From: an uncultured Solirubrobacterales bacterium
GTDB lineage: Bacteria > Actinomycetota > Thermoleophilia > Solirubrobacterales > Solirubrobacteraceae
Assembly (NCBI GenBank): GCA_963718935.1
Contig: OY970379.1
Span: 2,770,108-2,834,107 of the forward strand
Reading direction: 5' to 3'
Length of the DNA: 64,000 nucleotides
Below, piece after piece: positions 48,696 to 64,000 of the stretch (position 1 is the stretch's first letter; each line of letters begins with the position of its first letter). The translations under genes and the position numbers were made by a program. The notes under the pieces are model-generated. The model did not search any database, had not been told where the DNA came from, and was given only the letters and a program-made list of their open reading frames with translations.

Positions 48696-48757
48696 GACCT
48701 AGGTTTTAGAGTGGCCGAGCCCACCTCGCAAGCCCCGGCCGAGGCGTTGCGGCGAAC

Positions 48758-48985
48758 TCAGCGGTAGGTGTACTTGATCTTTCCGGCGGCTACCTCCTCG
48801 AGGGCGATCGTGAGGTAGTTCTTGGAGGCCGTCTCGACCATCGGCGGCGGGAACTCGTCGAAGGTGCCCTCGCCGAGGTTGTGGTAGTAGCTGTTGATCT
48901 GGCGAGCGCGCTTGGCCGCCACGAGCACGCTGGCGTAGTTGGAGTCGACGTTGTCGAGCAGCTTGTCGATGCGGGGTGAGATCAC
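48758..48985 (-). CDS. rpoZ: RNA polymerase omega subunit
   Basis: P.ID.LL..VDS.Y..V..AAKRARQIN.YY, IAL.E..AGK; GTG 48985. Confidence 0.93.
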   Translation of the reverse strand: MISPRIDKLLDNVDSNYASVLVAAKRARQINSYYHNLGEGTFDEFPPPMVETASKNYLTIALEEVAAGKIKYTYR

Positions 48986-49179
48986 TTGGCTTCGGCCTTT
49001 CTCGGGTTGAAGCTTCGATTGTAGTGGCGGCCACTCCAAACGCGTAGGTGGCTTGCTGGCTGGCTGGCCACTCGCGTGCGCGCGCGAGTCGGGCGTCGGG
49101 CCGGCGATCCTCACATGACCCGGCTCGGCCGGCCAGACCGGGAGGGCGCACGACGAGCGCGCTCTTGAAAGTCGGTGCG

Positions 49180-49207
49180 CTGCGCGCGCGTACGTACGCG
49201 CGCGCAG
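49180..49207. repeat. 28-bp perfect palindrome CTGCGCGCGCGTAC|GTACGCGCGCGCAG
   Basis: Read directly; gmk-rpoZ intergenic; almost entirely RY-alternating. Confidence 0.9.
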
Positions 49208-49223
49208 ATCGGCGTTTTGCGAA

Positions 49224-49778
49224 TCAGTCCAACTCCCCCTCGACGATCTCCGTCAGCTGGGCGAGCGCGTCCTCCAGGCGGTCGTTGACGACCACGTGGG
49301 CGAACTCGGGCTGGGCGGCGAGCTCACCCTCGGCGACCCCCAAGCGGCGCTCGACCTCGGCACCGTCGTCGGTCCCACGTCCGACCAGACGGGTACGCAG
49401 GGCCGCAAGCGACGGCGGGGCGATGAACACCTGGATCGCCTCCGGCAGGGCGACGCGCACCTGCCTGGCGCCCTGGACCTCGATCTCGAGGACGACCGGC
49501 ACTCCGGCCCGCACACGGTCCTCGAGCTCGGAGCGCAGCGTTCCGTAGCTGCGACCGGCGTAGTCGGCGTGCTCGACGAAGGCGCCTTCGTCGACCCTGC
49601 GGTCGAACTCGGCGCGGCTCAGGAAGTGGTAGTCGACCCCGTCGCGCTCTCCCGGTCGAGGTGGACGGGTCGTCGCCGACACCGACAGCTGCAGCCGGGG
49701 CACCCGCTCCATCAAGCCTCTGATCAGCGTCCCCTTGCCGACCCCGGAGGGGCCCGTTATGACGAACAAGCGTGCGAT
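49224..49778 (-). CDS. gmk: Guanylate kinase
   Basis: FVITGPSGVGKGT, SVSATTR.PRPGE.DG.DYHF, YGT, LEIEVQGARQV, FIAPPS, RL.GRGTD, VVND.L; start uncertain (TTG 49769, ATC 49778 or TTG 49850). Confidence 0.95.
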   Translation of the reverse strand: MARLFVITGPSGVGKGTLIRGLMERVPRLQLSVSATTRPPRPGERDGVDYHFLSRAEFDRRVDEGAFVEHADYAGRSYGTLRSELEDRVRAGVPVVLEIEVQGARQVRVALPEAIQVFIAPPSLAALRTRLVGRGTDDGAEVERRLGVAEGELAAQPEFAHVVVNDRLEDALAQLTEIVEGELD

Positions 49779-49892
49779 GGCCTTGACCCTAATGTCGCTA
49801 CCGGCTGGAGCCGCGGTCGTGACCGGGACGACCTGCCGTAACCGGTGCAAGCGAAGCGAACGCAGGCGAGAAGGTCGCCACCGAGCTCTAGA

Positions 49893-50237
49893 TCAGCGGC
49901 GCAAAAGCGAGATCAGCTCGCTGCGCTGGCGATCGGAGAGACCGCCGATCGTCTTGCTCGGCGAGATCCGGCAGTGGGCCAGGATCTTGTTGGTCTTGAC
50001 GCGACCGTACTTGGGGACCGCCAGCAGCATGTCGAAGACCTTCGCGGTCTCGAGGTACTCGGGCGGGTTCAACAGCAGCGCGTGGATCGACAGGCGACCG
50101 GCCTTCAGATCGCGCTTGAGCTGGGCCCGCTTGGTGCGAATGCGGTTCGCCCGGGCAAGCGCGTCCATGCGCTGGTTCAGGGACCGCTCGGGGGCCACAG
50201 TGTGCTTTTGAGGAGCCAAGTCGGTCGCCGTCGCCAT
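49893..50237 (-). CDS. mihF: Actinobacterial integration host factor (mIHF/sIHF)
   Basis: RS..QR..AL..AN..R..RA.LK..LK.G, AKV..ML.AVP.YG.VK...I...CRIS.S..IGGL..RQR..L; directly upstream of gmk as typical in Actinobacteria. Confidence 0.9.
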   Translation of the reverse strand: MATATDLAPQKHTVAPERSLNQRMDALARANRIRTKRAQLKRDLKAGRLSIHALLLNPPEYLETAKVFDMLLAVPKYGRVKTNKILAHCRISPSKTIGGLSDRQRSELISLLRR

Positions 50238-50409
50238 GGGCGGCGAGTCTACACGCCGCGCGACGACGATCAAGGGAAACGCGATTAATTCATCTAAACC
50301 TCGACCTGAGGTTCACCTATGTCGAGGTTCCTGGACGGTGGTGTTGCTCGTTTGCAGGGGTTTTTATCTTCGCATCATTTGGCTGTCCAGCCAGCCCGCC
50401 TGCTTGAGA

Positions 50410-51525
50410 CTAGGCGTCGCGCGAGCCGATCGCGACGCTTCGATCGGCTCGGCCGACAAGCTCCTGGATCGACGCAAAACCGGCCTCGTGGACGCGGCGT
50501 GCCAGGTATCTGTTGACCCGCGCGGGCCAGCCCGGCCCGCCGTAGACGAAGCCGGTGTAGGCCTGCACGAGCGTCGCGCCGGCAGCGATCCGCTCCCAGG
50601 CGTCCTCGGGCGTCGAGACTCCGCCGACCGAGATCAGGACCAGGCGGTCGCCGACGCGATCGTATAGCCGCCGCAGGACCGCGACCGCCCGCCCCCGCAG
50701 CGGCGGGCCCGAGATCCCTCCGCCCTCGATCGCGGCCACCTCGGCGGGTCGCGAGAGGACACCTCGATCGATGGTCGTGTTCACGGCGACGATCCCGTCC
50801 AGCCCAAGCTCGACCGCGAGATCCGCGATCGCGTCCACGTCCTCGTCGGGAAGATCGGGGGCGATCTTGACAAGCAGCGGCGTCTGGAGGCCTGCGTCTG
50901 TCAGCTCCCGACGCACCTCGAGAAGCAGCGGTCGCAGCGAGTCGACCGTCTGCATGTCGCGCAGGCCGGGCGTGTTGGGCGAGCTGACGTTGACGACCAG
51001 GTAGTCGCAGACCGGCGCCAGCTGGCGCACGCTCGCTCGGTAGTCCGCCCCGGCGGACTCGACCGGCGCCGACATGCTCTTGCCGATGTTCGCTCCTACG
51101 ACCAAACCGCCAGGCCGGCGAGCGCCCAGACGTGCGGCGACGGTCTGAGCGCCCGGGTTGGGGAAGCCCATCCGATTCAGGAGCGCCCGGTCGCCCAGGA
51201 TTCGGAACACGCGTGGCCGCGGGTTGCCCGCCTGGGGACGGGCCGTGACGGTGCCGACCTCGACGTGCCCGAAGCCGAGCAGCCCCAGGCCGTCGAACCA
51301 GTCGCCGCCCTTGTCCAGGCCGGCCGCGACCCCGAGCGGTCCGGCAAAGGTCAAGCCGAGCGCCCGGACGCACAGCGCCGGGTCGTGCGGCGCCAAACGT
51401 CGACGCAGCACGGTCGGGCAGCCGGGAATGCGCAAGACGGCGCGCATGGCCAGGACCGCGAGGTTGTGCGCGCCCTCGACGGGAAGCCGCCGCAGCAGCA
51501 GGTCGAACAGGGCGCGGTAGATCAC
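50410..51525 (-). CDS. pyrD: Quinone-dependent (class 2) dihydroorotate dehydrogenase
   Basis: GL.F..P.G.AAGLDK, GFG.VEVGTVT..PQ.GNP.PR.FR, LNRMGFPN.G, NIGK, NVSSPNTPGLR..Q, KIAPDL, NTT, GG.SG.PL, SVGG, AGA.LVQ.YT; GTG 51525. Confidence 0.95.
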   Translation of the reverse strand: MIYRALFDLLLRRLPVEGAHNLAVLAMRAVLRIPGCPTVLRRRLAPHDPALCVRALGLTFAGPLGVAAGLDKGGDWFDGLGLLGFGHVEVGTVTARPQAGNPRPRVFRILGDRALLNRMGFPNPGAQTVAARLGARRPGGLVVGANIGKSMSAPVESAGADYRASVRQLAPVCDYLVVNVSSPNTPGLRDMQTVDSLRPLLLEVRRELTDAGLQTPLLVKIAPDLPDEDVDAIADLAVELGLDGIVAVNTTIDRGVLSRPAEVAAIEGGGISGPPLRGRAVAVLRRLYDRVGDRLVLISVGGVSTPEDAWERIAAGATLVQAYTGFVYGGPGWPARVNRYLARRVHEAGFASIQELVGRADRSVAIGSRDA

Positions 51526-51622
51526 GGGCGGCGGGTAATCGGACCCGAGACCGAGTACCCCCGTGGGCCGCGGCGCCCGGCAATTGCCGTCGCTTCCATG
51601 GACGTCGCCCTCGCGGGCGCGC

Positions 51623-54600
51623 TCACGGGTGCAACTCCTGCAGGCACAAGACCTCGGGCTCGCCGCCGGCATGAGCCCGGGCGATGGCGCGGGCGGCGGA
51701 GACCCCGGCCGCAAGGGTTGTCAGGCATGGGATCCCGTGGGCGACCGCCGCGCGCCTGATCTCCCAACCATCGGTCCTCGCGCCCGAGCCCGTCGGCGTG
51801 TTGACCACCAGGTGCACGTCGCCGCGCTCGATCCAGTCGAGCACGTGGGGCGAGCCCTCGCCGATCTTGTTCAGGCGCTGCACGGGCACCCCCATGCGCG
51901 CGATCGCCTCGGCGGTGCCGCGCGTGGCGACGATCCGAAAGCCGACGTCGTGCAGTGTCTGGGCGACCGCGAAGGCGCCGGCCTTGTCGGAGTCGGTGAC
52001 CGTGATGAAGGCCGTGCCCTCGTTGGGCAGAGGCACGCCCGCGGCGGCCTGAGCCTTGGCGAACGCGGTCGGAAAGTCGCGGGCGATGCCCATGACCTCC
52101 CCGGTCGAGCGCATCTCGGGGCCAAGCACCGCGTCGGAGCCCTCGAAACGGTCGAACGGCAGGACCGCCTCCTTGACCGAGACGTGATCGCCGCGCCCGA
52201 GACCTTCGGCCTCTCCGGGGAGGCCCAGGTCGGCGATCCGCTCACCGAGCATGATCCGGCAGGCGAGCTTGGCAAGGGGCAAGCCGACGGCCTTGGAGAC
52301 GAAAGGCACGGTGCGCGAGGCTCGCGGGTTGGCCTCGATCACGTACAGCTCGCCGGCATAAACGGCGTACTGCACGTTGAGCAGGCCGACCACGCCGATC
52401 GCAAGCGCAAGCTCGCGCGTGGCGCCACGGATCTGCTCGAGCATCTCCTCGCCGAGCGAATGTGGGGGCAGCACGCAGGCGCTGTCGCCGGAGTGCACAC
52501 CGGCCTCCTCGACGTGCTGCATGATCCCGCCGACCCACACGTCCTTGCCGTCGCACAAGGCATCCACGTCGACCTCCGTCGCGTTCTCGAGGAAGCGGTC
52601 CAGGAAGATCGCCGGGCTTTGGTTGCCGGCGGGACCGACCGGATGGGTCCTGCCGTTCGGGGCGCTGGCGCCGCCGTTCGGATCGGCGAGGTCGTCCGGG
52701 TCGGGCGGCGGCTCGCGGCTGAGGTAGTCGGCGAGCCCCGCATTCGAGTAGACGATCTCCATCGCCCGACCGCCGAGCACATAAGAGGGGCGCACGAGCA
52801 ACGGATAGCCGACGTCATCGGCCCTGGCCAGGGCCTCGCCCACCGAGCGCGCGGTCGCGTAAGGCGGCGCCTTGTAACCGAGCTTGGCAAGCAGCTCGCC
52901 GAAGCGGGAGCGGTCCTCGGCGAGGTCGATCGCGTCGACGCTCGTGCCCAGCAGCGGGACTCCCGCCTCGACCAGGCCGGCCGCGAGCTTCAATGGAGTC
53001 TGGCCACCGAACTGGACGATCACGCCCTCCGGCCGCTCGACCTCGACCACGGCGAGCACGTCCTGGAGCGTCAACGGCTCGAAGTAGAGCCGGTCGGAGG
53101 TGTCGTAGTCGGTTGAGACGGTCTCTGGGTTGCAGTTGATCATGACCGCGTCGCGTCCCGACTCGCGTACGGTCATCGCGGCGTGTACGCAGCAGTAGTC
53201 GAACTCGATCCCCTGGCCGATCCGGTTCGGTCCGGCGCCGAGGATCACGACCGACGGGCGCTCCCCGCGCACGACCTCGTGGGCCGGCTCGCCGCGCTCT
53301 GAGCCGGAGTAGTAGTAGGGGGTGCGCGCCGGGAACTCGGCGGCGCAGGTGTCGACCGATCGGAACGCAAGCTGCCCGGCGAACGGCGCGTCGGGGTCGA
53401 GGGCGAGCGAAAGCAGCTCGCGCAGGAACCACATGTCGATCGAGGTGCGCTCGTGGACGGCCTCGACGTCGACACCGCGCGCCAGCAACTCGAGGATCGT
53501 CTCGTAGCGGTCCGGGCTGGGGATCTCAAGGCTCGCCAGCAGATCCTCGTCGGACACTTCGCCCAGGCACGGGGGCTTGTCCAACTCGCGCGAGCGCAGC
53601 GCCTTGGCGAAGGCCTGGCCGAACGTCCTGCCGATCGCCATCGCCTCGCCGACGGACTTCATGTGGGTGGTCAACGTCGAGTCGGTGCCCGGGAACTTCT
53701 CGAAAGCGAAACGTGGCCACTTGACGACGACGTAGTCGATCGTCGGCTCGAAGCAGGCGGGGGTGACGCCGGTGATGTCGTTGTCGATCTCTTGGAGGGT
53801 GTAGCCGACCGCCAGGCGCGCGGCGATCTTGGCGATCGGAAAGCCGGTGGCCTTGGAGGCGAGCGCCGAAGAGCGCGACACGCGGGGGTTCATCTCGATC
53901 ACCAAGATCTGCTCGGTCTCGGGGTTCACCGCGAACTGGACGTTCGAGCCGCCGGTCTCCACGCCGACCGCCCGGATCACCGCGATCGCCTGGTCGCGCA
54001 GGCGCTGGTAGACGCGATCGGTGAGGGTCTGCTGGGGGGCGACCGTTACAGAGTCGCCGGTGTGGACGCCCATCGGGTCGACGTTCTCGATCGAGCAGAC
54101 GATCACGACGTTGTCGGCGTTGTCGCGCATCACCTCCAGCTCGAACTCGCCCCAGCCGAGGACCGATTGGTCGAGCAGGATCTGGCCGATCGGAGATGCC
54201 TCGATCCCGCGCGCCACGATGCGCTCGAACTCGTCCTTGGTGCGAGCGATCCCGCCACCGCGCCCGCCGAGCGTGTAGGCGGGCCTCACGATGCAGGGCA
54301 GGCCGAGCCCTGGCAGCGCGTCGATGGCCTGCTCGAGGTTCGTGGCGATCGCGCTGGCGGGCATCTCGAGGCCCGCGTCGCGCATCGTCGCGGCGAAGCG
54401 TTCGCGATCCTCGGCGCAGGCGATCGCGTCGTAGTCGGCGCCGATCAGCTCGACGTCGTACTTGGTAAGGGTGCCGTCGTCGTGCAAAGCCTTGGCCAGG
54501 TTCAGGGCGGTCTGGCCTCCCAGCGTGGGCAGGAGCGCGTCGGGGCGCTCGCGCGCGATCACCTGGGCGACCGGACCGGGTAGCAGCGGCTCGACGTAGG

Positions 54601-54790
54601 TGGCGTCGGCGAAGCCGGGGTCGGTCATGATCGTCGCCGGGTTGGAGTTGACGAGCACGATCTGAAAGCCCTCTTCGCGCAGAACCTTGCAGGCCTGAAC
54701 TCCGGAGTAGTCGAACTCCGCGGCCTGACCGATCACGATCGGACCGGAGCCGAGGATCATGATCTTGTCGATGTCCTTGCGCTTCGGCAC
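51623..54790 (-). CDS. carB: Carbamoyl-phosphate synthase large subunit
   Basis: [82 protein letters not shown] domain. Confidence 0.98.
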
Positions 54791-55951
54791 TTATGCAGCC
54801 GTCCGGATGCGCTCTAGGAAACGGTCGAACAGGTAGAGGCTGTCGTGGGGCCCAGGCCCGGCCTCTGGGTGGTACTGGACGGTCCCGCCGGGCACCTCCA
54901 ACAGCTCGAGGCCCTCGACGGTGCGGTCATACAGGTTGACGTGCGAAAGGGCGGCCTCGCCGAAGTCGGTCTGCCAGCGTACGGGCTCGTCGCCCTCGAT
55001 CGTGCGAGCGCCGCCCGGGCCGAGCGCGGCGAAGCCGTGGTTCTGGGAGGTGATCTCGATGCGTCCGGTCTGAAGGTCCTTGACCGGGTGATTGGCGCCG
55101 TGGTGGCCGAACGGGAGCTTGAAAGTCTGAAGGCCGACCGCCCGGCAGAGCAGCTGATGGCCAAGGCAGATACCCCAGACGGGCTTTACGCCGACGAGTT
55201 CGCGTACGGTCTGCACGACGTAGTCGAGCGCGCCCGGATCGCCGGGGCCGTTCGACAGGAAAACGGCGTCGGGGTCCTCGGCCAGGAGGTCGGCGGCCGA
55301 GCTGTTGCACGGGTGCAGGCTGAGACGGACGCCACGGCTGAGCAGCTCGGAGACCATCGACCGCTTGATGCCGGTGTCGAGCACCGCGATTCGCGGCCCA
55401 GCGGCGGCCTCATCACCGTGGTGGCTGACGTCGGCGGGCGTGACGCGGGCGGCGAGGTCCTGGCCGGCCATCGGCGGCTCGGCCGCGATCAGGTCGTGAG
55501 CGTCGCGCTCGGACATCTCGGCCGGGAAGACTCCCCCGCGCATGGCGCCGCGCTCGCGAATGTGAATCACGAGGGCACGCGTGTCGACCCCACTGATCGC
55601 CGGGATGCCGCAGTCGCTGAGCCACTGCAGCCAGCCGCCCTCGGCCGCGGGCGCGTCCTCGCGGTCGCACGCTTCGCGCATGATCGCGGCCCTGGCCCAG
55701 GCCCTGTCTGACTCCATCGCTTCGGCGCTGACGCCGTAGTTGCCGATGTGAGGATAGGTGTAAGCGATCAGCTGGCCCGCGAACGACGGGTCGGTGAAGG
55801 ACTCCTGATAGCCGGACATGCCGGTCGTAAAGACGATCTCGCCGACGGCGTGACCGGCGGCGCCGCAGGCTTCGCCGTCATAGCGTGCGCCGTCCTCGAG
55901 CAGCACGTACGCGCGCGCGCGCCGGACGATCTTCGATCGGTCGGGACTCAC
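54791..55951 (-). CDS. carA: Carbamoyl-phosphate synthase small subunit
   Basis: LEDG, GEIVFTTGMSGYQE..TDPSF.GQ, SNGPGDP, GICLGHQ, FGHHG.NHPV, TSQNHGF, QYHPEA.PGPHD. Confidence 0.97.
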   Translation of the reverse strand: MSPDRSKIVRRARAYVLLEDGARYDGEACGAAGHAVGEIVFTTGMSGYQESFTDPSFAGQLIAYTYPHIGNYGVSAEAMESDRAWARAAIMREACDREDAPAAEGGWLQWLSDCGIPAISGVDTRALVIHIRERGAMRGGVFPAEMSERDAHDLIAAEPPMAGQDLAARVTPADVSHHGDEAAAGPRIAVLDTGIKRSMVSELLSRGVRLSLHPCNSSAADLLAEDPDAVFLSNGPGDPGALDYVVQTVRELVGVKPVWGICLGHQLLCRAVGLQTFKLPFGHHGANHPVKDLQTGRIEITSQNHGFAALGPGGARTIEGDEPVRWQTDFGEAALSHVNLYDRTVEGLELLEVPGGTVQYHPEAGPGPHDSLYLFDRFLERIRTAA

Positions 55952-55967
55952 AGAGAAGCAACCACCA

Positions 55968-56531
55968 TCAGATGATCAGCTTCTGGACCGTCTTGAACTC
56001 CGGGGCGCCAGCGCCTTCGAGCAGCTCGAACAAAGCGGACTCGACCGTCGAGACGACGGCGCCGGCGCGCTGCAGGCGCTCGAGGCCGCGCTCGTAGTCG
56101 AGCTCGTGGCGCGAGCCGACGGCGTCGGCGGGGACGTGCACTTCGACGCCTTTGTTGAGCAGGTCGTGGACGGTCTGGCTGACGCAGACGTGGGTCTCGA
56201 TCCCGCAGACAATCGCCTGGCCGCGGCCTTCAAGGTCAAAGCCGTCGGCTCTGGCGGCCGAGAAGACGGTCTTCTCTATCAAGCGCTCGGCCGGGGCGTC
56301 GGTCTGGGGCTCGCCACCATGCGCGGGCTCGGCCAAGCCGACCTCGGGCGCGGTATGGCCGAGCCCTTTGGGGTACTGCTCAGAGACGAGGATCGGCAGG
56401 CCGAGGATGCGGGCGGCCTGGACCAGCTTGTTGGCGGCGGCGGCGACCGACGCGAAAGAGGCGTAGGGGCGGAAACCCTCTTGAATGTCCACGACGATGA
56501 GCGCCGCCCGGTCGCGTTCGAGCAGGCCCAT
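55968..56531 (-). CDS. Isochorismatase/cysteine hydrolase family protein (YcaC/ISOC-like)
   Basis: VVDIQE, SEQYPKGLG.T, EKT.FSA, GIETHVCV.QT, ADAVGSR; D-K-C triad; TGATG-coupled to pyrC. Confidence 0.9.
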   Translation of the reverse strand: MGLLERDRAALIVVDIQEGFRPYASFASVAAAANKLVQAARILGLPILVSEQYPKGLGHTAPEVGLAEPAHGGEPQTDAPAERLIEKTVFSAARADGFDLEGRGQAIVCGIETHVCVSQTVHDLLNKGVEVHVPADAVGSRHELDYERGLERLQRAGAVVSTVESALFELLEGAGAPEFKTVQKLII

Positions 56532-57874
56532 CAGGCGGCCACCACCGAGAAGACACGCTCACGGTAGGCGATCACGCCGGCGGCGACGGTCAACAGGACG
56601 CGACCACGCAGGCGGCGCCCGGCGAAGCAGCAGTTCTCGGAGCGGCTCTCCCAGCCGCGCTCGCCGGCTAGATACTCGGCGTCGAGGTCGATCAGGGTGA
56701 GGTTGGCGGGCTCGGAGAGGGCGATCGTGGGGATCGGCAGGTCAAAGAGGGCGGCGCCGGCGGTCATTCGCTCGACGAGGACGCCGAGGTCGAGCTCACC
56801 GGTCAGGACGAGGCCTGTGTACAGCGCGGCGAAGGCGGTCTCCAGGCCGGTGGTCCCGAAGGGTGCCTGCTCGAAGGGGACTTCCTTCTCCTCGCGCGCG
56901 TGGGGTGCGTGGTCGGTGGCGACGCAGTCGATCGTGCCATCGCGGAGACCCGCGATCAGGGCCAGCCGATCGTCGTCGCCCGCGAGTGGCGGGTTCATCT
57001 TCATGCGGGTGTCAAGCGTTCGGACCGAATCGTCGGTGAGCAGGAGGTGGTGCGGCGTGACCTCGCCGCTGACCTTGACGCCGGCGGCCTTGGCGGAGGC
57101 GAGCGCGCGCACGGAGGCGGCGCAGCTGAGGTGCTGGAAATGGACGCGGGCGTTCTCGAAGGCGGCGAGTTCGGCGTCGCGGGCGACCATCGTGGACTCG
57201 CTGACAGACGGAACGCCGGCGATGCCGAGCGCGGCGCTGACGGCGCCCTCGCGCATCGACGCGCCGCGGGAGAGCGTGGGGTCCTCCTCGTGCAGGACGA
57301 TGATTCCGCCGCAGAGCCGCTGGTATTGGAGGGCCTTGCGCAGAGTGCCGGCGCTCGCGACGGGCATGCCGTCGTCGGTGAAGCCGATGGCGCCTTCCGA
57401 GCGCAGGGTGGCCATCTCGGTCAGCTCCTGGCCGGCGAGGTCGCGAGTGATGGCGGCCAGGAACCCGACGGGGACGCGCGCATCGCGGGCGGCGGCGTCG
57501 CGCACGGAACGCAGGAGCGGCGGGGAGTCGATCGGCGGGTCGGTGTTGGGCATCGCGATGACCGCGCCGTAACCACCGGCGGCGGCGGCGCGGGTGCCGG
57601 TCTCGATGTCCTCCTTGTGCTCCTGACCGGGAGTGCGCAGGTGTACGTGGGGATCGAAGAAGGCGGGCATCAGCGCGCGGCCGCGGCCCTCGACGGTCTC
57701 AGCGCCATCGGCTGGCGCGATCGTGTCGGCGTCGGCGATCTCCGCGATGAGGCCGTCGCGGACGAGGACGTCACGGCGCGCGTCCAGCCCGGTGCGGGGA
57801 TCGAGCGCGTGGACGTCTTTCAGCAGCAGCTCGGCGGGCGCTCCGGGTCCTTTGACGAGCGGCTCGAATCCCAT
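56531..57874 (-). CDS. pyrC: Dihydroorotase (type I)
   Basis: DPHVHLRTPG.E.KE.I.TG..AAAAGG, MPNT.P, TDDG, HEED, QHLS, EVTPHHL, KMNPPL, TDHAPH, PFG.TGLET. Confidence 0.96.
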   Translation of the reverse strand: MGFEPLVKGPGAPAELLLKDVHALDPRTGLDARRDVLVRDGLIAEIADADTIAPADGAETVEGRGRALMPAFFDPHVHLRTPGQEHKEDIETGTRAAAAGGYGAVIAMPNTDPPIDSPPLLRSVRDAAARDARVPVGFLAAITRDLAGQELTEMATLRSEGAIGFTDDGMPVASAGTLRKALQYQRLCGGIIVLHEEDPTLSRGASMREGAVSAALGIAGVPSVSESTMVARDAELAAFENARVHFQHLSCAASVRALASAKAAGVKVSGEVTPHHLLLTDDSVRTLDTRMKMNPPLAGDDDRLALIAGLRDGTIDCVATDHAPHAREEKEVPFEQAPFGTTGLETAFAALYTGLVLTGELDLGVLVERMTAGAALFDLPIPTIALSEPANLTLIDLDAEYLAGERGWESRSENCCFAGRRLRGRVLLTVAAGVIAYRERVFSVVAA

Positions 57875-58848
57875 TACGCCAATTGGGGCTCGGGTACGGG
57901 GCGGGGAGCGTGGGCGCCGGCCGGACCGGGAGACCCTCCCTCCGGTCGCATCCCCGAACCGGCGAGCAGCTCGTAGAGGACGGCCATGCGCACGACGACG
58001 CCGGCCTCGACCTGGGCGGTGATCAGGGCCTGCGGCGAGTCGACGACCTCGCCGGAAAGCTCGACGCCGCGATTGACGGGGCCGGGGTGCATCAGGAGCT
58101 GGCGAGCGGACAGGCGCCGGCCGTTGATCTGATAGCGGCTTGCGTACTCGCGCAGGGAGGGCACCAAAGCCTCGGTCTGGCGCTCGTGTTGCATGCGCAG
58201 CGCGTAGACGACGTCGGCGCGAGCCAGCTCGTCAAGGGAGTAGCGGACGTCGCAGCCGAGCGTCTCGATCTCGCGCGGGATCAGGGTGGGCGGCCCGGCG
58301 ACGGTGACGTGGGCGCCGAGGCGCTGGAAGGCGATGATGTTCGAGCGGGCGACCCGCGAGTGGGCGACGTCGCCGACGATCCAGATCTCGGCGCCGTCGA
58401 TCGAGCCGAGGCGCCGGTGCAGGGTGTAGACGTCGAGCAGGGCCTGGGTCGGGTGCTCGTGCTTGCCGTCGCCGGCGTTGACGATCGCGGCAGGGCACCA
58501 GCGCGAGACCAGCTCGGCGGCACCGGCCCAAGGTGTGCGCAGGACGATCGCGTCGGGCTTGTGGGCGCTGAGCGTCTGGACTGTGTCCTTCAGGGACTCG
58601 CCCTTCTCGACGGAAGAGCCGCTGGACGCGAAGTTGACGACGTCCGCGGACAGGCGCTTTGCGGCCAGCTCGAAGGAGCTGCGCGTGCGCGTGGAGGCCT
58701 CGTAGAAGAGGTTCAGGACCATCAGGCCGCGCAGAGCCGGCACCTTCTTGATCTCCCGATCGGAGACCTCCGCGAAACGGAAGGCCTGGGCGACGATCTT
58801 CTCGATCGCGGGCCGGTCGAGTTCCTCGATCGAGAGCAGGTGATTCAT
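57874..58848 (-). CDS. pyrB: Aspartate carbamoyltransferase catalytic subunit
   Basis: LFYEASTRTRSSF, SS..KGESL.DT, NAGDG.HEHPTQALLD, GD..HSRVARSN, LRMQ.ER, MHPGP.NRG.E. Confidence 0.97.
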   Translation of the reverse strand: MNHLLSIEELDRPAIEKIVAQAFRFAEVSDREIKKVPALRGLMVLNLFYEASTRTRSSFELAAKRLSADVVNFASSGSSVEKGESLKDTVQTLSAHKPDAIVLRTPWAGAAELVSRWCPAAIVNAGDGKHEHPTQALLDVYTLHRRLGSIDGAEIWIVGDVAHSRVARSNIIAFQRLGAHVTVAGPPTLIPREIETLGCDVRYSLDELARADVVYALRMQHERQTEALVPSLREYASRYQINGRRLSARQLLMHPGPVNRGVELSGEVVDSPQALITAQVEAGVVVRMAVLYELLAGSGMRPEGGSPGPAGAHAPRPVPEPQLA

Positions 58849-59420
58849 GGAGTGAGGGCTTTCTCGGGAACGACAGAGGCGATCGTGACCTCATCGACGC
58901 TGTCAAGCTCGCAAACACGCACACGGACATGCTCGGCGCGGGAGGTCGGCAGGTTCTTGCCGACGTAGTCGGGCCTGATCGGCAGCTCGCGGTGACCGCG
59001 ATCGACGAGCACCGCGAGCTGGACCTTCGCGGGGCGCCCGTAGTCGAACAGGGCCTCGATCGCGGCCCTGACGGTGCGCCCGGTATAGAGGACGTCGTCG
59101 ACGATGACGACGGTCAGGCCGGTGACGTCGAAGTCGATGTGGGAGGCATGCACGACCGGCGCGGCGGGCCTGCGGAGGACGTCGTCGCGGTAGAAGCCGA
59201 TGTCGAGGTCGCCGAGCGGGACCTCGCGGCCGAGCAGATCCTGGAGGATGTCGCGCAGGCGCCGCGCCAGGTGGGCGCCGCGGCGGTGGATGCCGACGAG
59301 CGCGAGACCGGACGGATCGTCTGCGCTTTGAGGGTTGCGCTCGACGATCTCGTGGGCGATACGGGTCAGGGCCCGCCGCAGGTCGTCCTCGCCGAGGACC
59401 GTCTTCTCGGTGTCGTGCAC
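58845..59420 (-). CDS. pyrR: PyrR regulator / uracil phosphoribosyltransferase
   Basis: RAL.RIAHEI.E, GI..RG, LDI..YRDD, VVIVDDVLYTGRT.RAA..AL...GRP, L.DRGHRELPIR.DYVGKN.PT. Confidence 0.97.
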   Translation of the reverse strand: MHDTEKTVLGEDDLRRALTRIAHEIVERNPQSADDPSGLALVGIHRRGAHLARRLRDILQDLLGREVPLGDLDIGFYRDDVLRRPAAPVVHASHIDFDVTGLTVVIVDDVLYTGRTVRAAIEALFDYGRPAKVQLAVLVDRGHRELPIRPDYVGKNLPTSRAEHVRVRVCELDSVDEVTIASVVPEKALTP

Positions 59421-59479: not shown

Positions 59480-60451
59480 TCAGCCGGCGGGGACCGGCTC
59501 GGGCGGAGGAGCCTCGCGGGCGCGACGCTCAGACCAGCGCACCAGCTTCGGTAGGCCGCGCTCGGGAAACGGGATCTCGATCGTGTCGTAGTCGCGAGGA
59601 GCCTCAGTCTGGACGAACACTTGGCGCGCCTCATCACTGAGCTCGCCTCCGGGATAGCGGCTGGAGATGTGGGTCAGCGCCAGCATCCGGACATCGGCCT
59701 CGCGCGCGACTTCAGCCGCCTGGCGGGCGGTGCTGTGGCAGGTGAGACGCGCCCGGTCGGCATTGTCCTCGACGAACGTCGACTCGTGTACGAGCACGTC
59801 CGCTTCGTGGGCGGCGACGATCAGGGACTCGCAAGGCGCGGTGTCCCCGGAGATGACGATCTTGCGACCGGGCCGCTCCGGTCCGAGGACCTGGTCGGGG
59901 CGTACAGCGCCTACGCTCTCGCCGCGCTGCAGGCGCCCGAAGTCCGGACCGGGCTGGACGCCGAGCGAGACGGCGAGGTCCGGGTCTAGGTGGCCCGGCC
60001 GGGGATCCTCGATCAGGGCATAGCCGTAGGCCTCCCCTTTGTGCCTGACCGGGATCGTGGCGACCACGTAGCCGTCACCCTGGACCGACTCGGCCGGGGC
60101 CAGCTCGACGACATTCAACTCGTAGGGCAGCCTGCCGTAGATGAAGCGCGTCTGCTCCATCAGGCTGGTCAAGCCCCGCGGGCCGTACACGCTGAGCGGC
60201 TGGGTCCGCTCGCGCAAGCCAAACGACTTGAGCATCCCGGGCAGTCCCAACCAGTGGTCGGCATGAAAGTGGGTGATCCAGACCGAGTCGAGGTCGAGCA
60301 GACCGACCGACTTGATCAGCTGGCGCTGGGTCCCCTCGCCGCAGTCGATCAAGATCGTCTCCCCGCCCCGCCTGATCAGGATCGCGGGCAGGCCACGACG
60401 GGCGCTCGGAACCGAGCCGCCGGTGCCCGCGAAGAACAGGGACATGTCCAT
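59480..60451 (-). CDS. rnz: Ribonuclease Z
   Basis: F.GT.GSVPS.RR, LIDCGEGTQRQ, ITHFHADH..GLPG, exosite G..PGP..G.L..G, SGDT.PC, HESTF, HST, LTHIS.RY. Confidence 0.95.
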   Translation of the reverse strand: MDMSLFFAGTGGSVPSARRGLPAILIRRGGETILIDCGEGTQRQLIKSVGLLDLDSVWITHFHADHWLGLPGMLKSFGLRERTQPLSVYGPRGLTSLMEQTRFIYGRLPYELNVVELAPAESVQGDGYVVATIPVRHKGEAYGYALIEDPRPGHLDPDLAVSLGVQPGPDFGRLQRGESVGAVRPDQVLGPERPGRKIVISGDTAPCESLIVAAHEADVLVHESTFVEDNADRARLTCHSTARQAAEVAREADVRMLALTHISSRYPGGELSDEARQVFVQTEAPRDYDTIEIPFPERGLPKLVRWSERRAREAPPPEPVPAG

Positions 60452-60454
60452 GGT

Positions 60455-60469
60455 CCGCTACGGTAGCGG
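60455..60469. promoter_or_regulatory. Palindrome CCGCTAC-G-GTAGCGG carrying -10-like hexamers on both strands (TACGGT +, TACCGT -)
   Basis: Occupies the 28-nt gap between divergent rnz and tRNA. Confidence 0.55.
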
Positions 60470-60479
60470 CACCGCGCCA

Positions 60480-60552
<73 letters not shown>

Positions 60553-60571
60553 TAGCGAAGGAGGACCTGCG

Positions 60572-61522
60572 GTGCGAGATGGCGTAAGAGAGTTCGAGCT
60601 GATAGTCCGGACCATGCGCACCGAGCGTCTCGCGGGTGAGGTCGCCAATGCTCTTGAAGATGCCGGTATCGCGACGATCCTGCTCAAGGGCTCCGTTCTC
60701 GGCCAGTGGCTTTACCCAGGCCAGGTGCGTGTCTACGGCGACGCAGACCTTCTGGTAAGTCCCGCCTCCTGGGAGCGGTCTCTGATCGTTCTCGACTCGC
60801 TTGGTTTCGAGAAACATCCCCGATCGACCGAACGCACACAGTTCGGGCCCACCCATGCAAGGACTCTCATGCGTGACGGCCTCTGCGTCGACTTGCATCG
60901 TGCGCTTCCCGGCCTCAGGGGTGACAGCGAAATGATCTGGCAGTCGCTGCTGGCTCGCGCCAGGTGGCAAGACATCGCCGGTGTCGAGGTCCGTGTGCCC
61001 GACCGTGCGCTCCTCTTGCTGCACGTCGCGCTGCACGCGGCACAGCACGCACGGGAGCCGATTTCGAAGACCTTCGAGGATCTGAGACGGGCGATCGCGA
61101 TCGCGTCAGAAGACCAGTGGCGACGCGCGCTCGAGCTGGCCTATATGTATGAAGGCGTTGCGGGATTCGCCAGCGGTTTGCGGATGCTGCCAGAGGGAGA
61201 GCAGCTCTTGAACAACCTGGACGTCGAAGTACTGCCCTCGCTTCAGCACGAGCTTCGCCGTCACAGCGATCCGATCGTCGAGGAGATTGGCGGTCTGCTC
61301 TGGGCGCCAGGCAACCTGAGATCCAAGATCACCACCATGATGGGAATGCTCTTTCCGAGCCCCGAGTACATGCGCGATTGGTCGACTCTCGCTAAGCGCG
61401 GCAAGCGCGGGCTCGCCGCCTCTTACGTTTGGCGCTTGCTCTGGGCTATCGGTCATACCCCGCGGGCCGCCCTCGCAGCTTGTCGTGTGCATCGCCAGAC
61501 CACGGGAAAATGGTCAGTTTGA
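60572..61522 (+). CDS. Nucleotidyltransferase-family protein (NTP_transf_5-like, the type found in RiPP-associated clusters)
   Basis: L..AGI..ILLKG..L...LYP...R.YGDADLLV (KG...DxD), VDLH, LLLH.ALHA.H, DL; SD GGAGGA then GTG 60572. Confidence 0.85.
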   Translation: MRDGVREFELIVRTMRTERLAGEVANALEDAGIATILLKGSVLGQWLYPGQVRVYGDADLLVSPASWERSLIVLDSLGFEKHPRSTERTQFGPTHARTLMRDGLCVDLHRALPGLRGDSEMIWQSLLARARWQDIAGVEVRVPDRALLLLHVALHAAQHAREPISKTFEDLRRAIAIASEDQWRRALELAYMYEGVAGFASGLRMLPEGEQLLNNLDVEVLPSLQHELRRHSDPIVEEIGGLLWAPGNLRSKITTMMGMLFPSPEYMRDWSTLAKRGKRGLAASYVWRLLWAIGHTPRAALAACRVHRQTTGKWSV

Positions 61523-62530
61523 CATCAGCATGTGCCGTCCTTGATTCCGTGAATGCCGCGTCTCGTCCTGAAGCGCAAGACGTATGAGCGATTCGATCGC
61601 AGCGCGGCCGGCGACGGGCGCGCTGCGCACCGTGCCGTCCGATGCGAGGAGGATGGCGGAGGGGGTTGCGTTGATTCCGTATGCGTGCATGACGGTTGCT
61701 TGCTCGTCGACGAGCACGTCAGTCAGGGCGTGCTCACGCGCGAGCGCCTCGGCTTGCGTGGCCTCCACCGGGGCTACCAAGGTGAGGGCTAGGCGTTCGG
61801 TTACGGTGTCATGCCAACGCGCGAGTTCAGGCAGGAGCGTCGCGCAGGGTCCGCATCCGGGGCTTACGAATGTGAGTAGGCAGGCCCGGTCATCGGCCAG
61901 GAGGTCCTGAAGGCTGACGACGGGTCCCGCCGCGGATGGCAGAGAGAACTGTGGCGCCAGCGCTCCGATTTGCCGGGGCGCGGTGACCGCTCGGCCGTCG
62001 GTCGAGCGTAGCCGGCGGTTCTCGCGCCACAGAAGCACAGATGTCGTTGTCGCGAGAGTTGCCAGTGAGGCGGTCGCGATCAGCCAGAGGTCAGTCGCGT
62101 TGGTGTCGGCCGCCCATGAGGTAAGCGAGGGACCCGGGCCCGCGAGCGCCACGTATGCGGCCGGCAGTGCCAGCACGAGATTGCGGGCGACCGTCATCCA
62201 GCTTGCGGGCTCGGAGTGCAACTGGCCGAAGCAGTGGCAATCCGGGGCTTCACCGCGGCGCAGCACTCGTGTGAGCCCCGCGACGAACAGCGCGAGGAGA
62301 ACCAGGCCGCCCACGGCCCCCCAGCGAGCCGTAGTCGGAAACAACAGCGCCGTCGCCACCACGAGCTCGGCCGCGGGCAAGAGCAGCACCAGCGGATCGG
62401 CAAGGCGGTCCGGCACATCGAAATCCGCCAGTGCCTGCCGCGTACCCGAGCGGTCGACGAGCTTTGCTACCCCCGCGACGATGAACACCGCGGCAAGAAA
62501 GAGCCGAACTATCACCAGCGCGTCGTTCAT
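61514..62530 (-). CDS. MauE/DoxX membrane domain fused to a thioredoxin-like (MauD/TlpA) domain
   Basis: R..LAAVF..AG.AKL.D, ELVVA..LL, RG...DCHCFG, ARN..L; then G..AP.F.L, FVSPGCGPC, Y.I..TPSA.L...DG; start ATG 62530 preferred. Confidence 0.9.
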   Translation of the reverse strand: MNDALVIVRLFLAAVFIVAGVAKLVDRSGTRQALADFDVPDRLADPLVLLLPAAELVVATALLFPTTARWGAVGGLVLLALFVAGLTRVLRRGEAPDCHCFGQLHSEPASWMTVARNLVLALPAAYVALAGPGPSLTSWAADTNATDLWLIATASLATLATTTSVLLWRENRRLRSTDGRAVTAPRQIGALAPQFSLPSAAGPVVSLQDLLADDRACLLTFVSPGCGPCATLLPELARWHDTVTERLALTLVAPVEATQAEALAREHALTDVLVDEQATVMHAYGINATPSAILLASDGTVRSAPVAGRAAIESLIRLALQDETRHSRNQGRHMLMSN

Positions 62531-62550
62531 GATCCAAATGTACAACAGCT

Positions 62551-63357
62551 ATGGTCCCCTGTGTGGCAGGTGAAAGCGCAGAGACGGTGGCAGTCGAGGC
62601 GTTTGGTGTGACCGTAGCGGTCACCGCCGATTCTCAGCACTTCGCGGCTGTTTCCGATTTCCTGCCTCCGCGCGCCCGTCCGGCGAGCCACCCGCCTGAG
62701 CATGGCCGCTTCGCGCTCGTCAAGGACACAGATGACGCGCTTATGAGCGTCGTGTGCGACGAACAGCCGATCGCGGGCCCGTTTGACCTGCGACTGGCGC
62801 TCGGCATCCTTGACGCCGAGCTGCGCATGTACATCGCGCTGCATGCTCCCGACCATATTTTCGTCCACGCTGGAGTTGTTGGAGTAGGAGAGCACGCGAT
62901 CGTGCTTCCGGGCAGGAGCTTCGCCGGAAAGACCACCCTCGTGGCCGCGCTCGTGCAAGCGGGCGCGGAATACTGGTCTGACGAGTACGCCGTGCTCGAC
63001 GCCGACGGCCTCGTTCACCCCTACCCCAAGCCTTTGTCGGTGCGCATCAACGACACCCGCGAGACCGACGAGCAGCCTGTCGAGAGCCTCGGCGGACGAG
63101 CCGGCGATCGACCCCTGCCCATCGCTGTGATCGCGTTCACGAACTACAGCCCCGGAGTCACATTTGCGCTCCGCCCCTGCACCACCGGAGAAGGTGCCGT
63201 CAAACTGCTGGAGCACTCGGTCGCCGCGCGCTCGCGCCCGGAACAGGTACTCGCAGCTGTGCGGCGCGCCGCGACCGACGCCCTGGTTCTCGAGGGAGAC
63301 CGCGGAGACGCCGACGAAGCCGCCAGCGCGCTGTTGTCACCGCAGCCTGCGAGTTGA
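62551..63357 (+). CDS. HPr-kinase-like P-loop kinase
   Basis: FVHAGVV....AIVLPGRSFAGKTTLVAALV..G..Y.SDEYAVL..DG.V.PYP.PL: HAG + Walker A + SDE pattern of HPrK-related kinases. Confidence 0.85.
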   Translation: MVPCVAGESAETVAVEAFGVTVAVTADSQHFAAVSDFLPPRARPASHPPEHGRFALVKDTDDALMSVVCDEQPIAGPFDLRLALGILDAELRMYIALHAPDHIFVHAGVVGVGEHAIVLPGRSFAGKTTLVAALVQAGAEYWSDEYAVLDADGLVHPYPKPLSVRINDTRETDEQPVESLGGRAGDRPLPIAVIAFTNYSPGVTFALRPCTTGEGAVKLLEHSVAARSRPEQVLAAVRRAATDALVLEGDRGDADEAASALLSPQPAS

Positions 63358-63471
63358 CAAAGCGCGTCAGGTCGACGCACGCGCCCGCTCACAGCGAGAT
63401 CGCGGACACCGGCTAATTGGGGGCCGCCCATCACGGGATGTCCGACTAGGGACCGTTGTCGTCGTCGCCCG

Positions 63472-63644
63472 TTATGCCCGGCTCTCGGGCGCCACCATCA
63501 GATCAGAGTCAGTAGGTACGCACATCCCGGGATAGAGCCACTTGGCGAGCAGGCCTTGAGCACAAGCACCTCGATTCCCTCAATTTGATCGAACGCACCC
63601 GCGACCTCGGCCCTGAACGCATCGACCGCGAATTTACGCGCCAG
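63472..63644 (-). pseudogene. Frameshifted remnant of a second nucleotidyltransferase
   Basis: Minus strand: ARKFAVDAFRAEVAGAFDQIEGIEVLVLK, then in another frame LLAKWLYPG..DSDLMVAPE (a third frame gives DVRTY); parallels EVANALEDAGIATILLKGSVLGQWLYPGQVRVYGDADLLVSP of 60572-61522; flanked by in-frame stops. Confidence 0.75.
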
Positions 63645-63723
63645 TTAGGAATAACGCTCAAGAATCATGTTCATCACAGATAAGAGACACTCGCCCCACC
63701 TTGCGATCCGCACGCGGCGGCCG

Positions 63724-64000
63724 CTACACAGCCATCATTCCCGCCGTTTCTTTGAACACACCTTTACGCGTACTACCAGCGCATGTCGTTGTGCAAGTAA
63801 AGCCTGTGCTCTGGGTGACCGCTTCACCATTTTCGCAGCAACAGCAGACTGCATCTGCGCTAACACAGCGATTTTCGGTCTTACAGTTGATGTTTTCGCC
63901 CGAGCTGGCCATAGCTGGCGTTGCGGCGACTGCGGAGACGACTAGCGGCGCGGCGGCGGCGGCGGCACCGTAACGCCCGACCCGGACGATCGCTTCCCGG
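63724..64000 (-). CDS. Cys-rich exported peptide / RiPP-like precursor, 5' end beyond the window
   Basis: Frame open to the window edge: REAIVRVGRYGAAAAAAPLVVSAVAATPAMA-SSGENINCKTENRCVSADAVCCCCENGEAVTQSTGFTCTTTCAGSTRKGVFKETAGMMAV*; 8 Cys. Confidence 0.75.
   Translation of the reverse strand, partial: REAIVRVGRYGAAAAAAPLVVSAVAATPAMASSGENINCKTENRCVSADAVCCCCENGEAVTQSTGFTCTTTCAGSTRKGVFKETAGMMAV

Follow-up and report, generated by a model that had tools for sequence, protein, structure and literature searches.

A putative RRE-fused precursor of exported, disulfide-rich peptides with exchangeable cores in Solirubrobacterales

RiPP recognition element (RRE) domains are the main handle for class-independent mining of RiPPs, the peptides that ribosomes make and that are then modified post-translationally, and are usually treated as parts of enzymes or as free chaperones. 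MauA is a small, disulfide-rich protein exported by the twin-arginine translocation (Tat) pathway, and MauE and MauD are thought to make or shuffle its disulfides. The cone-snail toxin superfamilies combine a conserved signal or leader with hypervariable mature peptides that follow few cysteine frameworks and are encoded by many paralogues per genome. The gene considered here lies at the end of a 64,000-nucleotide stretch of DNA from an uncultured Solirubrobacterales bacterium (contig OY970379.1, positions 2,770,108 to 2,834,107 of the forward strand; hereafter the window) and encodes a putative precursor of an exported, cysteine-rich peptide. It represents a new architectural variant of kinase/nucleoside triphosphate (NTP)-transferase-associated RiPP-like systems and belongs to a very large uncharacterised family of soil actinobacteria, for which the closest characterised system is that of the linear polyphosphorylated peptides (LPPs), RiPPs of Bacillota (Popov et al., Nat Commun 2026, PMC13381572). 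LPPs are polyphosphorylated, with Ser3 of the core being phosphorylated before cleavage, and their leader is removed in a signal-peptidase-type manner (PMC13381572). Bufferins, in turn, are MNIO-modified RiPPs that carry Sec signal peptides and are associated with a DoxX gene and an RRE-like domain (PMC11626156).

The minus strand of the window translates between positions 63724 and 63999 to REAIVRVGRYGAAAAAAPLVVSAVAATPAMASSGENINCKTENRCVSADAVCCCCENGEAVTQSTGFTCTTTCAGSTRKGVFKETAGMMAV, with coding bases 63999 to 63727 and a stop codon at 63724-63726. An earlier interpretation made from the letters of the window alone, referred to here as the sequence-only reading, had described the frame as open to the window edge, which agrees with the translation, and had called the single leftover base 64000 compatible with a preceding CGC, which would give RREAI. 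This base is a C on the minus strand, compatible with an Arg codon ending in C, and all relatives have SRREAI at this point. The fragment comprises two segments:

63907..63999, minus strand: leader part of the precursor, REAIVRVGRYGAAAAAAPLVVSAVAATPAMA, incomplete because the window ends here; the translation shows the second R of the twin arginine, an Ala-rich uncharged stretch and a terminal P-A-M-A
63727..63906, minus strand: core of 60 residues with 8 Cys, SSGENINCKTENRCVSADAVCCCCENGEAVTQSTGFTCTTTCAGSTRKGVFKETAGMMAV, as given by the translation

The leader directly precedes SSGE, after which the cysteines are spaced C-x5-C-x6-CCCC-x13-C-x3-C, exactly as the sequence-only reading had it; its rendering of the leader left out RYG between REAIVRVG and the Ala run and is otherwise as translated. 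The core has a computed isoelectric point (pI) of 5.1 and a mass of 6165 Da. When the 91-residue window fragment was used as a query, 14 proteins were retrieved, the best at E = 4e-31 and 78% identity, and an exhaustive profile search with the family found 5838 representative proteins at E ≤ 1e-3, 3148 of them at E ≤ 1e-10; because of this relative and of the 5838 representatives the window open reading frame (ORF) is not a chance one, and the precursor is a real gene. A scan for promoters and terminators near it gave nothing above the shuffled background.

Loci of relatives are designated here by L and a number, and relative proteins by P and a number. A locus scan, which used one genome per species and a single peptide pattern and thus gives a lower bound of the taxonomic range, found 52 loci, all in metagenome-assembled genomes (MAGs) of Solirubrobacterales or Solirubrobacteraceae. 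In total, 65 precursor ORFs were counted at these loci, with no more than three at any one of them, and several loci can occur in one genome; a word-indexed search yielded at least 683 close members, all named 'hypothetical'. The full-length relatives are single ORFs of 180-200 residues (about 185) consisting of three parts, an N-terminal domain (N-domain), the leader and the core, and the window ORF would be the 3′ two-thirds of such a three-part precursor gene of about 185 codons, an assignment that shares the evenly balanced probability of the whole explanation set out below. Distant members retain the three-part architecture, with Cys-rich tails of 30-220 residues and, in some, Pro/Thr-rich ends. 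Among them, P0170, P0197 and P0212 have long Pro/Thr/Ser-rich C-terminal tails beyond the Cys-rich part that resemble wall-spanning or glycosylated linkers, and P0293 has a short core with a knottin-like C-C-CC-C-C spacing.

The N-domain of the relatives is about 95 residues long and follows the pattern MHEHGSLPRARxDGLLEETVGEELLLYDxxSHTAHCLSPIAACVWRHCDGERD...LVADALHELREKDLL. PF05402 (PqqD) is matched by the N-domains of 51 of the 53 full-length relatives (E ≤ 0.01); the N-domain of the positional orthologue of the window gene (L023:10591-10866) passes with 23.8 bits against a gathering score of 23.4, and several others stay slightly under it at 18.7-23.2 bits. AlphaFold models the N-domain confidently as a winged-helix domain of the order strand-strand-helix-helix-helix (predicted local distance difference test, pLDDT, 87-94), followed by a leader below 50 and a core at 87-92. 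Foldseek finds no neighbour of the N-domain at E ≤ 1e-3; the lasso RRE TbiB1 (5v1u, 72 columns, TM 0.48) and the RRE of CteB (5why) belong to its best structural neighbours, where they rank among generic winged-helix matches; a sequence-profile search of the PDB with the N-domain returned nothing significant. The domain is acidic, with a net charge of -5 and a pI of 5.3, which counts against DNA binding. The suspicion of the sequence-only reading that an RRE might be fused upstream is therefore borne out in the relatives, and the identification of the N-domain as a PqqD-like RRE domain is largely supported by profile matches and predicted structure. The first half or more of the N-domain is lost, with leader and core intact, in L001:9971-10387 (an allele shared by L002, L052 and L056), L054:9989-10387 and L033:8666-9187. 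The truncated copies still have a start codon, or else the conserved Met that precedes the twin arginine (RR) by eight residues, so that an ordinary N-terminal signal peptide is possible in these; the same Met is present in 70% of copies, and if it were the start codon, the signal would be N-terminal.

The family consensus of the leader, SRREAIxRxxRYGAAAAAxxxIVSATAATPAMA, is near-invariant across 53-119 relatives, and the segment extends over 33-40 residues from S-R-R-E-A-I through an Ala-rich stretch with P-L-I/V-V-S to T-P-A-M-A; SRREAI is followed by more arginines, some 21 uncharged Ala-rich residues, Pro at -4 and Ala at -3 and -1. When distant members are included, the RR is invariant and P-L-x-x-S nearly so across the superfamily. 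Of 146 top representatives, 143 have the RR with at least 13 uncharged residues and 138 have a small-x-small site, at a median distance of 34 residues from the RR and with a median tail of 67 residues and 10 Cys. The segment thus shows the features by which a Tat signal was recognised here, namely S/T-R-R-x-hydrophobic-hydrophobic, a weakly hydrophobic uncharged stretch, and A-x-A about 25-35 residues after the RR. Directly after A-M-A, positions +1 to +4 read SSGE in 68 and SSEE in 14 of 118 relatives (82 of 118 together). A constraint at the nucleotide level, such as a recombination signal or RNA structure, was considered for the leader and rejected, as its synonymous codon diversity (0.32) is alike to that of the N-domain (0.28); what is constrained is therefore the protein. 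Conservation of the hydrophobic stretch goes far beyond what signal peptides usually show, which speaks against a simple signal peptide, and the leader is read here as a segment probably recognised specifically by several partners, a combined leader and export signal.

In contrast to the leader, the cores, 40-75 residues long, have few common features besides Cys. Cys counts among 118 cores are mostly even, with 8 Cys in 62 and 10 Cys in 43, and three frameworks were distinguished:

framework A, C..CCxC..C..CxxxC..C: n = 64
framework B, CCQC..CxC...: n = 43
framework C, the window type, CCCC: n = 7

An alignment of framework A and C cores (A6) has six invariant Cys columns, among them those of a strand CxC and of a CxxxC located in a helix. 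AlphaFold predicts the same strand-strand-helix-strand fold for the cores of P0015 (pLDDT 87-92) and the window (82-89), and a Foldseek search of the core against the PDB gave no structural neighbour, the best match being at E = 7. The cores are mildly acidic, with a median pI of 5.1. The even Cys counts and the confident compact folds fit disulfide-containing mini-proteins, which is why the cores are read as such; a weak NCBIfam match of the core to the HPE1 CxxC domain (E 0.044) was dismissed.

The codon usage also changes between leader and core, as had been claimed from the window copy. GC content and GC content at third codon positions (GC3) are 0.75 and 0.74 in the window leader and 0.52 and 0.52 in the window core, compared with a GC3 of 0.91 in pyrB of the same window, and the shift is general over 61 family copies, whose mean GC3 is 0.77 in the leader, 0.71 in the N-domain and 0.49 in the core. 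The low core GC3 is uniform across family loci (e.g. L001-L055; mean 0.49, range 0.26-0.67), set against about 0.9 in host housekeeping genes, and is explained neither by amino-acid composition nor by the measured ratio of nonsynonymous to synonymous substitution rates (dN/dS).

A core replacement is seen at the locus L023, which is syntenic with the window (92% identity to window 60000-63435) and has one precursor gene in the same position, a full-length positional orthologue (L023:10591-11145). The leaders of the two are 98.9% identical over 93 nt (window versus L023:10882-10974), and the identity ends at window position 63907, the last base of the A-M-A codons; over the following 180 nt there is no detectable similarity, which resumes only in the NTP_transf_5 remnant described below. 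The window core together with about 30 nt beyond its stop codon is 79% identical to a copy that another MAG and contigs of soil metagenomes contain (L001, L002 and L056). Between the window core and the L001 copy, dN is 0.11, dS 0.67 and dN/dS 0.17, by which the window-type core is evidently under purifying selection; in P0299 a core of this type follows an intact N-domain, and the N-domain is truncated in the L001-type copy. Across 12 alignable pairs dN/dS is 0.17-0.89, and positive selection as the driver of core diversity is unsupported where the cores can be aligned, dN/dS being below 1 in all 12. The median dS of the cores is 0.56 versus 0.24 upstream, about twice as high, which suggests that the genes are of mosaic ancestry or that their upstream part has been homogenised. 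The diversity has the appearance of old lineages of cores that were shuffled while the N-domain and leader before them were homogenised. No reverse transcriptase of a diversity-generating retroelement is present in the gene tables, of which no systematic search was made. The proposal of a conserved leader with an exchangeable hypervariable core is accordingly upheld by the near-invariant leader of 118 relatives, by cores that share little besides Cys and by the swap at L023, with the qualification that the cores are not freely exchangeable random sequence but belong to few related Cys frameworks. On the whole, the sequence-only interpretation of the window ORF is largely supported, with the caveats given here.

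Beside the precursor, the window carries a set of genes that recurs at related loci, separated by a tRNA gene from a housekeeping region:

62551..63357, plus strand: HprK-related P-loop kinase-like protein of 268 residues (partial match to TIGR04352 HprK_rel_A, E 3.8e-18)
61514..62545, minus strand: fusion protein of a MauE/DoxX membrane domain and a TlpA/ResA-like thioredoxin domain that contains a CGPC site (PF07291, AhpC-TSA, Redoxin and Thioredoxin matches)
60614..61522, plus strand: NTP_transf_5 nucleotidyltransferase-like protein (PF14907, 77.4 bits)
63475..63662, minus strand: decayed 5′ remnant of a second NTP_transf_5 gene (found by tblastn with the L003 and L001 proteins; residues ~6-69, with an in-frame stop and a frameshift)
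60480..60552, plus strand: tRNA-Arg(CCG) (ARAGORN, Rfam)
47418-59420, minus strand: housekeeping block of a PyrR-like phosphoribosyltransferase, ATCase, amidohydrolase, isochorismatase, carA, carB, gmk and coaBC

The kinase-like protein has no Pfam match and no PDB sequence match, and its gene is kept beside precursors in L001, L003 and L057-L059. In the fusion protein, whose true start is probably the ATG at 62530, the membrane part matches PF07291 (MauE) with 106.9 bits against a cut-off of 27, and the protein, which is MauD-like without being an equivalog, scores 39.8 bits against a cut-off of 188.6 for MauD (TIGR02661). In the PDB it matches Etrx, ResA and DsbE best. It has five predicted hydrophobic segments, and the numbers of Lys and Arg per loop (0/4/1/2/0/5, with two further Arg in the helices adjoining the '2' loop) give a charge bias by which the thioredoxin domain, like the conserved D-C-H-C loop, would be cytoplasmic. 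The NTP_transf_5 gene likely starts at the ATG at 60614, because the listed ORF start at 60494 overlaps the tRNA, and its product is 47% identical to the L001 and L003 counterparts over nearly the full length. The second, decayed NTP_transf_5 copy lies directly downstream of the precursor, where many relatives have an intact gene. A 50-residue ORF at 63509-63661 and the conserved 180 nt downstream of the precursor were considered as a gene or RNA element and proved to be this 5′ remnant, the antisense translation of which is conserved in 18 loci; Rfam reports only the tRNA. The intact NTP_transf_5 gene of the window is in the opposite orientation with respect to the order in L001 and L003. Because the remnant adjoins the precursor and the intact copy is 47% identical and oppositely oriented, a replacement or an inversion of the cassette has apparently taken place, the common order being precursor followed by NTP_transf_5.

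Conservation of the cassette was surveyed in 42 close loci with full 10-kb flanks, 28 of which contain NTP_transf_5, the MauE-thioredoxin fusion and the HprK-like gene together. All three likewise adjoin the precursor or precursors in three distant loci (L057-L059), and their order and orientation differ from locus to locus. In L003, two inverted precursor genes flank the three-gene cassette (L003:10001-10477, plus strand, and L003:13589-14158, minus strand), as also in L029, L047 and L048; such inverted repeats, of about 400 nt and about 80% identity, could drive cassette inversions between loci. In the window, tRNA-Arg(CCG) marks a boundary between the pyrimidine-operon region (GC ~0.70, GC3 ~0.9) and the cassette (GC 0.55-0.67, GC3 0.72-0.76). 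The cassette side is island-like, no integrase was seen, and L023 has the same junction. Upstream of its precursors, L023:6227-9709 encodes an arylsulfotransferase (ASST), an ICMT-family methyltransferase and a RES-domain toxin gene, and similar genes may follow just past the window end. In the otherwise unrelated loci L001 and L003, the cassette lies near dnaG, an HTH_38 protein and an EryCIII-like UDP-glycosyltransferase, and in L001 a methyltransferase and an alpha/beta hydrolase adjoin the precursor. Flanking genes of the glycosyltransferase, methyltransferase and hydrolase types might represent additional tailoring, in only 3-9 loci. A PADLOC search with four proteins gave no anti-phage defence match.

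The explanation that best accommodates these observations, and to which we assign about even probability as a whole, is that of an RRE-fused, exported, cleaved and disulfide-rich peptide precursor subject to kinase/NTP_transf_5 modification, which draws on the sequences, the predicted structures and analogy to known systems. The RRE domain would remain cytoplasmic and act in cis as a docking platform for the HprK-like kinase and the NTP_transf_5 enzyme, for which the Ser-Ser right after A-M-A would be a likely modification site by analogy to the LPP RiPPs. The RR/hydrophobic segment would double as leader and export signal, and type I signal peptidase would cleave after A-M-A, freeing an acidic peptide of about 6.2 kDa, in which the MauE/DoxX-thioredoxin protein would form or shuffle four disulfides in the manner of MauE/MauD with MauA. 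The cores would be replaced as units via recombination with the breakpoint at the leader/core junction, so that several different cores per genome would come to stand behind one common leader.

Several observations weigh against this explanation. The start codon and the N-domain lie outside the window, and the N-domain is thus seen in the relatives only. An exact look-up of the window's pyrB product gave no match, exact DNA scans of metagenome contigs yielded the L001-type allele only, and a search of sequencing runs led to soil metagenomes containing at most 11% of the words. The RR is found at median position 97 of the protein, an unusual place for a signal peptide, and no Tat-signal family came up when Pfam and NCBIfam were scanned at E ≤ 1; of the Tat-like/AxA leader put forward in the sequence-only reading, the invariant RR, the Ala-rich uncharged stretch and the P-A-x-A hold, and its location some 97 residues into the protein and the lack of a hit to a Tat-signal hidden Markov model do not fit. 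In the AlphaFold models the leader, with a pLDDT below 50, is not docked onto the RRE in cis. The kinase-like protein reaches 65.6 bits against the TIGR04352 cut-off of 200, and the match is limited to residues 68-165. The charge bias of the fusion protein places the thioredoxin domain in the cytoplasm, yet its nearest solved relatives, Etrx, ResA and DsbE, are extracytoplasmic. Twelve of the 42 fully flanked loci have none of the three cassette genes and hold orphan precursors, and no dedicated peptidase or exporter is conserved in the cassette in the five gene tables read (L001, L003 and L057-L059). Export, cleavage and phosphorylation of the precursor are given here as what we infer from sequence.

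Three other readings have to be considered against the same evidence. The precursor could be an uncleaved single-pass (type II) membrane protein, with an Ala-rich anchor between a cytoplasmic winged helix and a Cys-rich sensor or adhesin on the surface and with no released peptide. The RR/hydrophobic segment is indeed internal, its 21 uncharged residues can span a membrane, and the Pro/Thr-rich tails of P0170, P0197 and P0212 are like linkers that span the wall. This reading is nevertheless unlikely: P-A-x-A, with small residues at -3 and -1, is conserved superfamily-wide and would be needless for an anchor, the hydrophobicity is modest (a Kyte-Doolittle peak of ~2.0 in a 15-residue window), SSGE is conserved after the site and conservation then collapses, the recombination breakpoint coincides exactly with the site, and copies truncated of most of the N-domain retain leader and core. 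A conventional cytoplasmic RiPP, in which the segment would be a leader for the fused RRE only, the Cys would be modified, for example to thioethers or heterocycles, and the exit would not be by Tat or Sec, appears quite improbable in view of the five gene tables, from which radical-SAM, LanM, YcaO and MNIO enzymes are absent, as is any conserved transporter. The even Cys counts and compact confident folds suit disulfide mini-proteins, and the conserved redox partner is a thiol-disulfide oxidoreductase fusion, even though the P-L-I-V-S in the 'hydrophobic region' is far more conserved than usual signal-peptide cores and is similar to PxL in the leader motifs of lasso peptides and LPPs (PMC13381572), and RRE, kinase and NTP-transferase are classic RiPP components (PMC9266682).

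The third reading concerns only the window copy, which might be a non-functional, unexpressed remnant truncated just past base 64000. The copy with the most similar core, in L001, L002 and L056, does have an in-frame stop by which the N-domain loses its first half, and an NTP_transf_5 pseudogene remnant adjoins the window copy. Such a remnant is very unlikely, however, given the purifying selection on the core relative to the L001 type (dN 0.11, dS 0.67), the intact leader, 98.9% identical to that of the full-length positional orthologue L023:10591-11145, and the occurrence of the same core type behind an intact N-domain in P0299; moreover, the truncated copies retain a start codon and, eight residues ahead of RR, the conserved Met, from which an ordinary N-terminal signal peptide would result.

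The explanation of an RRE-fused, exported and cleaved precursor might be taken further, to a previously unrecognised and very large class of secreted disulfide-rich mini-proteins made from 'self-chaperoning' precursors, which with all of its parts taken jointly is rather doubtful. Here, the RiPP recognition domain would belong to the substrate, and one conserved segment would be RiPP leader and Tat-type export signal at once. The kinase and NTP-transferase would act on the invariant Ser of P-L-I-V-S or on the Ser-Ser after A-M-A, and the serine modification would gate export and cleavage until the MauE-thioredoxin protein has oxidised and folded the core. Recombination at the junction would shuffle cores between loci and give each soil actinobacterium a changing repertoire, by a logic like that of cone snails.

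Full-text literature searches found no description of an RRE-leader-Cys-core precursor architecture. Where the RRE-bearing protein is itself the substrate, mining pipelines and annotation label it 'hypothetical' or 'peptide chaperone' and so miss thousands of candidates (3148 representative clusters at E ≤ 1e-10). The family would join RiPP leader recognition with general export via Tat and signal peptidase, extend the kinase/NTP-transferase chemistry of Bacillota to Actinomycetota, and give a function to MauE/DoxX-thioredoxin fusions. It would also constitute a natural library of compact disulfide-stabilised scaffolds of 40-70 residues without a solved structural relative, and, with the breakpoint exactly at the predicted cleavage site, would be a clean case of modular evolution in a secreted peptide repertoire.

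Among the known systems, the HPr-rel-A system (TIGR04352, and TIGR04353, 'HPr-rel-A system PqqD family peptide chaperone') is similar in having a PqqD-like protein beside an HprK-related kinase. The distant member P0295, which JGI names 'PqqD family protein of HPr-rel-A system', scores 35.6 bits against the TIGR04353 cut-off of 35, P0290 scores 23.7 bits, and the kinase partners of distant members reach 58-63 bits against the TIGR04352 cut-off of 200; the window clade, in contrast, is below both cut-offs, and its members have no TIGR04353 match at E ≤ 0.01 to 1. Furthermore, TIGR04353 consists of a PqqD domain of 74 residues only and is called a chaperone, whereas here the same polypeptide carries leader and core and would thus be the substrate. 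With MauA and MauE/MauD the window system shares a small disulfide-rich protein, a twin-arginine signal, a MauE membrane protein and a MauD-type thioredoxin fold, but here MauE and the thioredoxin form one polypeptide, the substrate is hypervariable, present in many copies and equipped with an RRE domain, and the quinone-cofactor machinery and large subunit are missing.

Bufferins are likewise made from Cys-containing precursors with a small-protein fold and a general-secretion signal that acts as the leader or accompanies it, and their clusters include an RRE-like domain and a DoxX-type gene. They differ in that no MNIO (DUF692), DUF2063, DUF2282 or BUF_6/12Cys was found in the Pfam scans of the precursors and the five gene tables, and in that the signal here is Tat-like and internal, the RRE is in cis, and a kinase and an NTP-transferase are present. 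The paeninodin-type lasso peptides (PadeK/PsmK kinase, PsmN and B1 RRE; PMC9266682) have a comparable trio of PqqD-like RRE, HprK-like kinase and nucleotidyltransferase-like protein, but no macrolactam cyclase (Asn-synthetase-like) or transglutaminase-like B2 protease is found in the five gene tables, and the lasso kinases target a C-terminal Ser, whereas the C-termini here are not conserved. The TMcin membrane RiPPs (PMC13252029) were set aside as unrelated. The likeness to cone-snail toxins, of a conserved leader, hypervariable Cys-framework peptides and many paralogues, is one of evolutionary pattern only, as the family is bacterial and not homologous, its cores are replaced as cassettes at the leader/core junction, and dN/dS is below 1 in alignable pairs.

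The similarities to LPPs go furthest. An RRE, an HprK-like kinase and an NTP-transferase are matched here by domain type around the precursor, a signal-peptidase-I-type site for leader removal, predicted here, is common to both, and both have clusters of one to three precursor genes whose products are conserved in the N-terminal part and vary greatly at the C-termini. The modified Ser of LPPs lies two to three residues past the cleavage site, and here Ser-Ser follows A-M-A. In contrast to LPPs, in which the RRE is a discrete protein, the RRE is fused to the N-terminus of the precursor, and the SipW-like peptidase and MsbA-like exporter of LPP clusters are both absent from the gene tables of L001, L003 and L057-L059. 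The leader is built of RR, an Ala-rich stretch and AxA instead of the LPP motif YxxPxVLxHQxIxFETxxS, the cores have 8-10 Cys and compact predicted structures, a MauE/DoxX-thioredoxin gene belongs to the set, and the hosts are Actinomycetota (Solirubrobacterales).

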